Of a stretch of DNA of 42,065 nt, positions 16,369 to 39,626 are shown in pieces (the stretch's first letter is position 1; every line of letters starts with the position of its first letter). The DNA is from Escherichia coli. Its GTDB lineage: Bacteria > Pseudomonadota > Gammaproteobacteria > Enterobacterales > Enterobacteriaceae. The notes under the pieces are model-generated. The model saw only the letters and a list, made by a program, of their open reading frames with translations. It ran no database searches and was not told where the DNA came from. The stretch lies in assembly GCF_003334255.1 (NCBI RefSeq), contig NZ_QOWU01000050.1; one strand, written 5' to 3'. A program made the position numbers and the translations under genes.

Positions 16369-17052
16369 ATGACGGCAATTGCCCCGGTTATTACCATTGA
16401 TGGCCCAAGCGGTGCAGGGAAAGGCACCTTGTGTAAGGCTATGGCGGAAGCGTTGCAATGGCATCTGCTGGACTCGGGTGCAATTTATCGCGTACTGGCA
16501 CTGGCGGCTTTACATCACCATGTTGATGTTGCATCGGAAGATGCGCTGGTGCCGCTGGCATCCCATCTGGATGTACGTTTTGTGTCGACCAATGGCAATC
16601 TGGAAGTGATCCTCGAAGGGGAAGATGTCAGCGGCGAAATTCGTACTCAGGAAGTGGCGAATGCAGCTTCACAAGTCGCGGCATTCCCACGCGTTCGTGA
16701 AGCATTATTGCGTCGCCAACGCGCGTTTCGCGAATTACCAGGCCTGATTGCCGATGGCCGCGACATGGGAACGGTGGTATTCCCTGATGCGCCAGTGAAA
16801 ATTTTCCTTGACGCCTCCTCGGAAGAACGTGCGCATCGCCGCATGCTACAGTTGCAGGAGAAGGGCTTTAGTGTTAACTTTGAGCGCCTTTTGGCCGAGA
16901 TCAAAGAACGCGACGACCGCGATCGTAACCGAGCGGTAGCGCCACTGGTTCCGGCAGCCGATGCTTTAGTGTTGGATTCCACCACCTTAAGCATTGAGCA
17001 AGTGATTGAAAAAGCGCTACAATACGCGCGCCAGAAATTGGCTCTCGCATAA
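16369..17052 (+). CDS. cmk: cytidylate kinase
   Basis: 227-aa ORF with P-loop GPSGAGKGT; aaggag Shine-Dalgarno. Confidence 0.95.
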
Positions 17053-17162
17053 GCGACCGAATTTGCAGTACCCCCGTTGCAATGGAATGACAGCGGGTAT
17101 GTTAAACAACCCCATCCGGCATGGAGCCAGGTGGACGTTAAATATAAACCTGAAGATTAAAC

Positions 17163-18836
17163 ATGACTGAATCTTTTGCTCAACTCTTTGAAGAGTCCTT
17201 AAAAGAAATCGAAACCCGCCCGGGTTCTATCGTTCGTGGCGTTGTTGTTGCTATCGACAAAGACGTAGTACTGGTTGACGCTGGTCTGAAATCTGAGTCC
17301 GCCATCCCGGCTGAGCAGTTCAAAAACGCCCAGGGCGAGCTGGAAATCCAGGTAGGTGACGAAGTTGACGTTGCTCTGGACGCAGTAGAAGACGGCTTCG
17401 GTGAAACTCTGCTGTCCCGTGAGAAAGCTAAACGTCACGAAGCCTGGATCACGCTGGAAAAAGCTTACGAAGATGCTGAAACTGTTACCGGTGTTATCAA
17501 CGGCAAAGTTAAGGGCGGCTTCACTGTTGAGCTGAACGGTATTCGTGCGTTCCTGCCAGGTTCTCTGGTAGACGTTCGTCCGGTGCGTGACACTCTGCAC
17601 CTGGAAGGCAAAGAGCTTGAATTTAAAGTAATCAAGCTGGATCAGAAGCGCAACAACGTTGTTGTTTCTCGTCGTGCCGTTATCGAATCCGAAAACAGCG
17701 CAGAGCGCGATCAGCTGCTGGAAAACCTGCAGGAAGGCATGGAAGTTAAAGGTATCGTTAAGAACCTCACTGACTACGGTGCATTCGTTGATCTGGGCGG
17801 CGTTGACGGCCTGCTGCACATCACTGACATGGCCTGGAAACGCGTTAAGCATCCGAGCGAAATCGTCAACGTGGGCGACGAAATCACTGTTAAAGTGCTG
17901 AAGTTCGACCGCGAACGTACCCGTGTATCCCTGGGCCTGAAACAGCTGGGCGAAGATCCGTGGGTAGCTATCGCTAAACGTTATCCGGAAGGTACCAAAC
18001 TGACTGGTCGCGTGACCAACCTGACCGACTACGGCTGCTTCGTTGAAATCGAAGAAGGCGTTGAAGGCCTGGTACACGTTTCCGAAATGGATTGGACCAA
18101 CAAAAACATCCACCCGTCCAAAGTTGTTAACGTTGGCGATGTAGTGGAAGTTATGGTTCTGGATATCGACGAAGAACGTCGTCGTATCTCCCTGGGTCTG
18201 AAACAGTGCAAAGCTAACCCGTGGCAGCAGTTCGCGGAAACCCACAACAAGGGCGACCGTGTTGAAGGTAAAATCAAGTCTATCACTGACTTCGGTATCT
18301 TCATCGGCCTGGACGGCGGCATCGACGGCCTGGTTCACCTGTCTGACATCTCCTGGAACGTTGCAGGCGAAGAAGCAGTTCGTGAATACAAAAAAGGCGA
18401 CGAAATCGCTGCAGTTGTTCTGCAGGTTGACGCAGAACGTGAACGTATCTCCCTGGGCGTTAAACAGCTCGCAGAAGATCCGTTCAACAACTGGGTTGCT
18501 CTGAACAAGAAAGGCGCTATCGTAACCGGTAAAGTAACTGCAGTTGACGCTAAAGGCGCAACCGTAGAACTGGCTGACGGCGTTGAAGGTTACCTGCGTG
18601 CTTCTGAAGCATCCCGTGACCGCGTTGAAGACGCTACCCTGGTTCTGAGCGTTGGCGACGAAGTTGAAGCTAAATTCACCGGCGTTGATCGTAAAAACCG
18701 CGCAATCAGCCTGTCTGTTCGTGCGAAAGACGAAGCTGACGAGAAAGATGCAATCGCAACTGTTAACAAACAGGAAGATGCAAACTTCTCCAACAACGCA
18801 ATGGCTGAAGCTTTCAAAGCAGCTAAAGGCGAGTAA
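17163..18836 (+). CDS. rpsA: 30S ribosomal protein S1
   Basis: 557-aa ORF, six tandem S1 (OB-fold) repeats visible as recurring DYGAFV/DFGIFI...GLLHI/GLVH motifs; strongly biased codon usage. Confidence 0.98.
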
Positions 18837-18844
18837 TTCTCTGA

Positions 18845-18876
18845 CTCTTCGGGATTTTTATTCCGAAGTTTGTTGA
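18845..18876 (+). terminator. intrinsic terminator downstream of rpsA
   Basis: cttcgg ... ccgaag stem followed by tttgttgagttt, 10 nt after the rpsA stop. Confidence 0.55.
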
Positions 18877-18995: not shown

Positions 18996-19280
18996 ATGAC
19001 CAAGTCAGAATTGATAGAAAGACTTGCCACCCAGCAATCGCACATTCCCGCCAAGACGGTTGAAGATGCAGTAAAAGAGATGCTGGAGCATATGGCCTCG
19101 ACTCTTGCGCAGGGCGAGCGTATTGAAATCCGCGGTTTCGGCAGTTTCTCTTTGCACTACCGCGCACCACGTACCGGACGTAATCCGAAGACTGGCGATA
19201 AAGTAGAACTGGAAGGAAAATACGTTCCTCACTTTAAACCTGGTAAAGAACTGCGCGATCGCGCCAATATTTACGGTTAA
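18996..19280 (+). CDS. ihfB: integration host factor subunit beta
   Basis: 94-aa ORF ([34 protein letters not shown]...), HU/IHF family; ggagg Shine-Dalgarno. Confidence 0.97.
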
Positions 19281-19306
19281 GTTTTTTACTCAAACTTGAA
19301 CGAGAG

Positions 19307-19330
19307 AAAAGCACCTGTCGGGTGCTTTTT
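19307..19330 (+). terminator. intrinsic terminator downstream of ihfB
   Basis: aagcacc-tgtc-gggtgctt hairpin followed by tttttt. Confidence 0.7.
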
Positions 19331-19487
19331 TCATTTCTCTAATCTGGAACTGGAAGCTGCCTCGCAGAGTTTTGAACAGTTTTCACCCTTTCGTTAAATT
19401 CTTCTGAATATGCCTCGGGGAACGCAAAATTCCCACCAGACAACCGCTCAACAAAGTTGCACACTTTCCATAAACAGGGAGGGGTGC

Positions 19488-39528: not shown

Positions 39529-39626
39529 GCCGGATGCGGCACGAGCGCCTTATCCGGCCTACAAAATCGTGCAAATTCAAAATATTGCAGGGGACGCGTA
39601 GGCCTGATAAGCGTAGCGCATCAGGC
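39529..39626. repeat. BIME: two inverted REP (repetitive extragenic palindromic) units
   Basis: gccggatgcggcacgagcgccttatccggcctac (39529-39562) and inverted copy gtaggcctgataagcgtagcgcatcaggc (39598-39626) match the REP consensus family as I recall it; located between convergent gloC and aspC. Confidence 0.75.

Follow-up and report, generated by a model that had tools for sequence, protein, structure and literature searches.

The element that spans the start of rpsA in the window, i.e., the whole 42,065-nucleotide stretch of Escherichia coli DNA that was analysed, is with a probability of about 94% the E. coli rpsA translation initiation region, the autoregulatory leader of ribosomal protein S1, in its K-12 sequence. 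Its start codon has no usable Shine-Dalgarno (SD) pairing and is preceded by just a vestigial GAAG. The leader displays two stable, covarying hairpins (H1 and H2) with GGA apical loops, separated from each other and from a weak, predicted third hairpin (H3) by AU-rich linkers. The initial annotation had recognised here the unusual initiation region of rpsA, with a structured leader autoregulated by S1. This reading holds: the fold and the covariation of H1 and H2 are documented below, and the autoregulation is established in the literature.

The leader lies on the plus strand, as do all features described here. It corresponds to the 110-nucleotide spacer (17053-17162) between the stop codon of cmk (gene 16369-17052, TAA at 17050-17052) and the ATG of rpsA. 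The rpsA coding sequence (17163-18836) specifies the 557 residues of protein S1, and is followed by ihfB (18996-19280). The identities of cmk, rpsA, and ihfB are all backed by NCBIfam equivalog models; in the case of S1, residues 1-557 align end to end with positions 1-556 of profile NF004951, with a score of 1186.8 bits. The RefSeq annotation reports identical genes and an identical rpsA start, and the gene calls of the initial annotation are thus correct. Around the spacer, a segment of 401 nucleotides shows 100% identity to E. coli chromosomes, being found in 5426 of 5426 complete genomes. Furthermore, the 152 nucleotides from 17030 to 17181 match exactly, as a substring, a sequence of K-12 MG1655 given in a published supplement, which makes this the same E. 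coli locus as that of the classic experiments. A promoter scan yielded one consensus-like site (TTGAGC-18-TACAAT, 16994-17023), no more than in shuffled sequences. Together with the neighbouring cmk and ihfB, the SD-less start and the leader with its three hairpins confirm that the locus has been read correctly, and provide a useful check of its annotation.

The ATG of rpsA (17163-17165) opens the 557-residue reading frame. The 25 nucleotides on its 5' side (UUAAAUAUAAACCUGAAGAUUAAAC) form at best a duplex of -1.0 kcal/mol with the 3' end of the 16S rRNA (ACCUCCUUA), which ranks last among the 31 annotated genes of the neighbourhood. With a longer 16S tail, the value for rpsA becomes -2.4 kcal/mol, the pairing being located outside the CCUCC core. 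The statement that no GGAGG-like element precedes the rpsA ATG is therefore borne out; the upstream string quoted in its support as 20 nucleotides is in fact 17 nucleotides long. No canonical SD is found in the leader at a spacing of 5-9 nucleotides from the AUG. What stands of the original “no SD” is the absence of a canonical one, and the better wording mentions the vestigial SD-like GAAG located 7 nucleotides before the AUG (17152-17155), identified from the sequence, the anti-SD pairing scan, and published mutations. The contrast with the neighbouring genes is real, since cmk possesses an AAGGAG with a 5-nucleotide spacer (-9.2 kcal/mol) and ihfB a GGAGG with a 4-nucleotide spacer (-9.5 kcal/mol). 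SD-poor starts are, however, not rare locally: duplexes weaker than -3.5 kcal/mol are found in 9 of 31 neighbouring genes, and a poor SD taken alone is hence not improbable. The highest anti-SD complementarity of the whole leader is that of AGGUGG (17129-17134, -7.2 kcal/mol), which is buried inside the H2 stem; AUGGAG, located in the H2 loop, comes next (-5.6 kcal/mol). Located 28 and 36 nucleotides from the AUG, respectively, both are too far away to serve as a canonical SD.

Conservation across species goes beyond this local picture. One genome per species was scanned with a degenerate pattern covering codons 1-11 of S1, which gave 120 loci. The rpsA start is SD-poor in all 120 species, with a median of -1.0 kcal/mol and a best value of -5.6 kcal/mol, whereas the medians in the same loci are -9.3 kcal/mol for ihfB and -8.35 kcal/mol for cmk. 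In paired comparisons, the start of rpsA is weaker than that of ihfB in 58 of 63 cases and weaker than that of cmk in 69 of 70. As ihfB and cmk are SD-strong in the very loci where rpsA is SD-poor, the absence of an SD is a property of the gene and not of the genome. Its conservation, rather than the local lack alone, is the part that exceeds chance. A GAAGA motif occurs at most 20 nucleotides from the start in 63 of the 84 loci of the leader type.

In silico folding of 17053-17180 recovers the three hairpins of the published model. The same three are obtained with 17072-17186, in the MFE as well as in the centroid structures, with pair probabilities of at least 0.76. H1 (17073-17097) is supported by fold and covariation and closes on the loop AUGGAA (L1, 17082-17087), whose GGA occupies 17084-17086; its pair probabilities range from 0.78 to 1.0 and its free energy, in isolation, is -10.8 kcal/mol. 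It is followed by the linker ss1 (17098-17111, UAUGUUAAACAACC), AU-rich by composition (71% A+U). H2 (17112-17134), likewise supported by fold and covariation, has pair probabilities of 0.95-1.0, a free energy of -10.3 kcal/mol, and the loop AUGGA (L2, 17121-17125) with its GGA at 17123-17125. The second linker, ss2 (17135-17151, ACGUUAAAUAUAAACCU), is AU-rich as well (76% A+U), and its length varies between species in the alignment. Both E. coli loops thus read AUGGA (17082-17086 and 17121-17125), 39 nucleotides apart. H3 (17152-17176), which is predicted by the fold, would pair GAAGAUU with AAUCUUU and hold the AUG in a loop of 11 nucleotides. It is weak (only -2.1 kcal/mol, pair probabilities 0.76-0.98), and the AUG is unpaired with a probability of 0.86-0.99. 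The GAAG sits in the predicted H3 stem, the 3' arm of which consists of rpsA codons 3-5. With thermodynamic z-scores of just -1.3 (17053-17180) and -1.8 (17072-17186), stability is weak evidence on its own, and the structure claim rests on covariation between species.

This covariation was assessed on a MAFFT alignment of 85 leaders, i.e., 84 distinct sequences plus that of the window, originating from Enterobacterales, Vibrionales, Pasteurellales, Aeromonadales, Orbales, and some Alteromonadales. These leaders share an invariant AACCCC and a near-invariant GGACGUU motif. When the three-hairpin model is applied to them, 88% of the cells are paired, versus 77% in shuffles and 36-55% with slid partners. 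Compensatory changes are observed at 11 of 21 pairs, and the covariation score reaches 0.398 versus 0.178 in shuffles, none of the 500 shuffles attaining 0.398. A model-fitted alignment, which by its nature leans towards the structure, gives 12 of 21 compensatory pairs and 92% pairing. All 7 tested pairs of H1 display compensatory changes, with 76.9% (MAFFT) or 88.7% (model-fitted) of pairing. In H2, they are found at 4-5 of 7 pairs, with CG/UA/GC/AU exchanges at the inner ones, and the lower stem is paired in 98.8% of cases across the leaders. H3 is pairable at about 90% across species without any compensatory change, both of its arms being conserved and its 3' arm having been partly fixed by the search pattern; as a consequence of this conservation, H3 neither gains nor loses support from covariation. 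At codon 4, UCU is used in 83 of the 84 loci of the leader type versus 20 of 36 others, a suggestive bias, although phylogeny confounds it. All 85 leaders have the GGA in L1, and 74 of 85 have it in L2. RNAalifold, run on the plain MAFFT alignment, recovers only H2, and H1 and H3 were scored via the explicit structure and the model-fitted alignment. An extension of H2 seen in the MFE structure, pairing ss1 with ss2, was dropped, as it is paired at 65.6% versus 63.8% in shuffles. This lack of conservation agrees with single-stranded linkers. The three innermost pairs of this extension (AAC 17105-17107 with GUU 17137-17139) are conserved in sequence, with no compensatory change.

A covariance model built from the same alignment has a single match in the window, at 17063-17186, with 120 bits. 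It scores at least 60 bits in Enterobacterales, Vibrionales, Pasteurellales, Aeromonadales, Orbales, and some Alteromonadales, versus at most 21 bits in beta-proteobacteria, Granulosicoccus, Woeseiaceae, and Pseudomonadales. This split agrees with the narrow distribution of the leader within the gammaproteobacteria described by Fu 2013 (PMC3616713). Scanning the whole window with Rfam 15 at gathering thresholds matches no family to the leader, and at E values up to 10 the region 16900-17300 returns chance hits only (Ysr209, CRISPR-DR36). This outcome says nothing about the leader being new to science.

The leader is indeed already known, and the literature describes it point by point, which supports the initial interpretation. 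The E. coli S1 autoregulatory leader of Boni 2001 (PMID 11483525), Skorski 2006 (PMID 16923895), and Fu 2013 is the same locus with the same sequence. No difference from it was detected, so that the present element is that leader itself and not a relative. The two share the lack of a canonical SD, the GAAG, H1 and H2, the GG of L1 and L2, and the AU-rich ss1 and ss2, and the predicted H3 with the AUG inside corresponds to the published third helix. According to Fu 2013, the S1-interacting RNA of the rpsA 5' UTR comprises the helices H1-H3, with a conserved GG in L1 and L2, described as important, and a variable yet nearly always AU-rich ss2; S1 makes contact with the H3 loop and with the single-stranded AU-rich segments. 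The construct used by Scharff 2011 contained positions -91 to -1 of rpsA plus the first 21 nucleotides of the coding sequence. Its 5' limit falls on 17072, immediately before the first base of H1. On the basis of this construct and of the covariance model match, the translation initiation region published as functional (-91 to about +21) extends over 17072-17186. The leader had initially been placed at 17053-17180; it does lie there, its functional part starting near 17072 rather than at 17053. In the same study, an SD was created through an A-to-G substitution at -10, a position equivalent to 17153, where GAAG has its first A. Conversion of GAAG to GGAG is reported to abolish the autogenous control of rpsA (Aseev 2015). 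More generally, the literature reports that this exact leader is repressed by excess free S1, competing with 30S-bound S1, and that a canonical SD abolishes the repression. For this sequence, published work includes toeprinting as well as rpsA'-'lacZ assays in the presence and absence of excess S1.

On the basis of these published data, the leader would function as follows. S1 bound to the ribosome would capture the AU-rich single strands offered by the fold, thereby recruiting the 30S subunit without any SD/anti-SD pairing, and the AUG exposed in the H3 loop would then be placed on the 30S subunit, resulting in very efficient initiation. When S1 exceeds the demand of the ribosomes, free S1 would bind the same AU-rich regions and block the 30S subunit, shutting off its own synthesis. 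Owing to its weakness, GAAG would leave the 30S complex sufficiently labile to be outcompeted by free S1. The rpsA leader is a textbook case of efficient, SD-independent and S1-dependent initiation with autogenous control by competition, and in E. coli it holds nothing new.

Three other explanations of the start region have to be weighed against this S1-based mechanism. As SD-less starts commonly signal wrong start calls, a mis-assigned rpsA start, the true one possessing a normal SD, was considered, and no support for it was found. An upstream start is ruled out by the in-frame TAA at 17139-17141, after which the ATG at 17163 is the first in-frame start. The alignment with the S1 equivalog profile begins at residue 1, RefSeq has the same start, and ATG-(A/T)CN-GAA-TCN-TTY is kept in 120 species, in contrast to the diverging sequence immediately 5' of it. 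Mis-assignment is therefore almost certainly wrong. A discontinuous SD has a little more in its favour: the GGAs of the H1 and H2 loops would pair with the 16S 3' end, brought near the AUG by the fold. The pervasive loop GGAs (85 of 85 leaders in L1, 74 of 85 in L2), the ability of the L2 AUGGAG to pair with the anti-SD at -5.6 kcal/mol, and the importance reported for the L1 and L2 GGs are in line with it. Against this, the title of Skorski 2006, which addressed the question, contains the words “lacks a Shine-Dalgarno element”, and the translation of rpsA is described as SD-independent. Furthermore, the two loops are located 37 and 76 nucleotides from the AUG, and 11 of 85 leaders have no GGA in L2. 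The defects caused by GGA-to-CCU changes are reportedly not rescued by specialised ribosomes carrying the complementary anti-SD. Pairing of this kind is considered very improbable.

A more substantial proposal is that of “unfoldedness”, in which an unstructured start region suffices and no specific upstream fold is needed. The weakness of the predicted H3 and the unpaired AUG in its 11-nucleotide loop fit this proposal, as does the report that mutations adding structure at the rpsA start lower expression to as little as 11.9% (Scharff 2011). It leaves unexplained, however, the covarying H1 and H2, the AACCCC and GGACGUU motifs 30-90 nucleotides upstream, and the S1-specific autoregulation, and the published accounts of H1/H2 deletion are opposite to full activity with autoregulation retained. 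As a self-sufficient explanation it is unlikely, and it is best seen as an ingredient of the S1 capture and competition mechanism rather than an alternative to it.

Among other known systems, rplY (encoding L25) and fis form together with rpsA a set of rare, efficient SD-poor E. coli mRNAs (Aseev 2015). Like rpsA, they are reported to be highly translated, with AU-rich enhancers and an SD-like element that is weak (GAGA in the case of rplY), and rplY likewise loses its autogenous control once a canonical GGAGG is installed. Unlike rpsA, rplY and fis have other folds and another repressor (L25), with no three-hairpin architecture. The rpsO/S15 pseudoknot and the L20, S4, and S8 operators are, as the rpsA leader, 5'-leader structures allowing self-repression by the free ribosomal protein. 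These classical operators, however, either trap the ribosome or imitate a particular site of the rRNA, in contrast to the rpsA leader, and S1, unlike their repressors, displays no strict sequence specificity and is reported to compete with 30S-bound S1 on AU-rich strands. In cyanobacteria, the rpsA-upstream RNA motif is also a conserved structure upstream of rpsA, which according to Fu 2013 does not resemble the RNA of E. coli.

The conserved loop GGAs matter for expression in a way that neither S1 competition nor SD pairing explains, and a side lead concerns the global carbon-storage regulator CsrA, which is described as recognising AUGGA/ANGGA when displayed in apical loops. This motif is matched by the E. 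coli loops and by the consensus of the clade (CAAGGAUGA for L1, CAGGAUGC or UAGGAUAC for L2). ANGGA is found in L1 in 81 of 85 leaders, and in L2 in 20 of 85. A CsrA CLIP-seq peak in the rpsA 5' UTR (peak_95, MG1655 961861-962013; Potts 2017, Supplementary Data 1) corresponds to 17030-17181, with a logFC of 1.65 and a padj of 4e-14. Its read maximum maps to 17125/17126, inside the H2 loop. In the same data set, the rpsA mRNA is flagged as co-purifying with His-CsrA.

The two AUGGA loops may accordingly be CsrA-binding sites, CsrA being a second trans-acting factor alongside S1 and not replacing it. This reading, in favour of which the two apical loops, the CLIP maximum on H2, the mRNA co-purification, and the conservation of ANGGA in L1 can be cited, is possible but on balance doubtful. 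The changes reported for rpsA in a csrA mutant by Potts 2017 are all non-significant, be it ribosome footprints (-0.29), RNA (-0.25), translation efficiency (-0.04), or half-life (8.45 vs 8.04 min). Further CsrA CLIP peaks occur in the rpsA coding sequence, one of them without any GGA, so that an abundance-driven background is possible. ANGGA is restricted to a minority of the L2 loops, and 11 of the 85 L2 loops are devoid of GGA altogether. In the literature searched, no paper discussing an interaction between CsrA and the rpsA leader, and no directed binding assay, was found. The S1 feedback could buffer an effect of CsrA on rpsA. Still more tentatively, the GGAs of the H1 and H2 loops would be putative sites through which CsrA tunes the synthesis of S1, or through which the abundant rpsA leader titrates CsrA, S1 autoregulation masking the outcome in either case. 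A physiological role of CsrA at this leader is, overall, held to be rather improbable.

In typical CsrA targets, a GGA overlaps the SD and expression is altered in csr mutants, unlike in the rpsA leader, where the GGAs lie 37-79 nucleotides upstream of an SD-less start and no change of expression was measured. The CsrA-regulated 5' UTRs of sopD2 and glgC, like the rpsA leader, carry GGA motifs in apical loops. In the rpsA leader, in vivo crosslinking of CsrA is centred on one of the two AUGGA loops, and this maximum on the H2 loop, the sole forward-looking element of the locus, could explain the requirement for the loop GGAs.

The rpsA gene, encoding ribosomal protein S1, appears to be served by promoters lying within the upstream cmk gene. 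According to the CLIP-seq annotation, an rpsA 5' UTR begins 278 nt before the ATG, at MG1655 position 961717 (window 16885), which falls within cmk, and a consensus-like promoter (TTGAGC-18-TACAAT) is found at 16994-17023; together, these two elements lead to this reading. Directly after rpsA, a weak terminator-like hairpin (18847-18868, CTTCGGGATTTTTATTCCGAAG) is followed by TTTGTTG; a hairpin of such weakness would fit with transcription continuing from rpsA into ihfB. A further terminator-like hairpin, whose 13-bp stem leads into a T-run, is located after ihfB (19304-19332).

In the three-hairpin model of the rpsA leader, the apical loops of the first two hairpins both display the sequence AUGGA, at 17082-17086 and 17121-17125, matching the CsrA motif. 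The E. coli CsrA CLIP-seq study of Potts 2017 documents a peak (peak_95) that corresponds to window 17030-17181, with its maximum at 17125/17126, inside the loop of the second hairpin (H2, 17112-17134). In the same study, rpsA expression does not change significantly in the csrA mutant, and the main text makes no mention of rpsA.

The dinucleotide CC at 17110-17111, immediately 5' of H2 and part of the AACCCC motif conserved in all 85 aligned gammaproteobacterial leaders, is invariant but left unpaired by this model. It may be a candidate for a tertiary contact, for example with a loop GG, a contact that is beyond the reach of covariation because every position is invariant. Further out, AAC (17105-17107) and GUU (17137-17139) provide three conserved pairs that could extend H2, and no compensatory changes between these two segments are seen in the rpsA leader alignment.

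The rpsA coding region also harbors, on the minus strand, a 379-residue antisense ORF with a GTG start (17199-18338). This ORF is most probably a side effect of how strongly codon usage is biased in rpsA. Downstream, the longest ORF of ycaI (ComEC family) begins at 19410 and spans 780 residues. The RefSeq start of this gene is positioned 77 nt downstream, at 19487 (locus coordinate 22588), where a strong Shine-Dalgarno sequence, GGGAGG (-11.6 kcal/mol), is found.

When the cmk-rpsA junction (16900-17300) was used as a query against E. coli genomes, 5 of the 5433 matches were on plasmid-labelled records, and some genomes possess two copies of the junction. Both kinds of match could reflect mis-labelled replicons or duplications.

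The sole Rfam match at gathering level in the window is the ES036 (CssrF) sRNA, at 39563-39605 on the plus strand (53 bits), located in the gloC-aspC intergenic spacer. REP-like palindromes (gccggatgcgg..., gcgtaggcctgataagcg...) flank and overlap this match, which may be repeat-associated instead of representing an sRNA gene.
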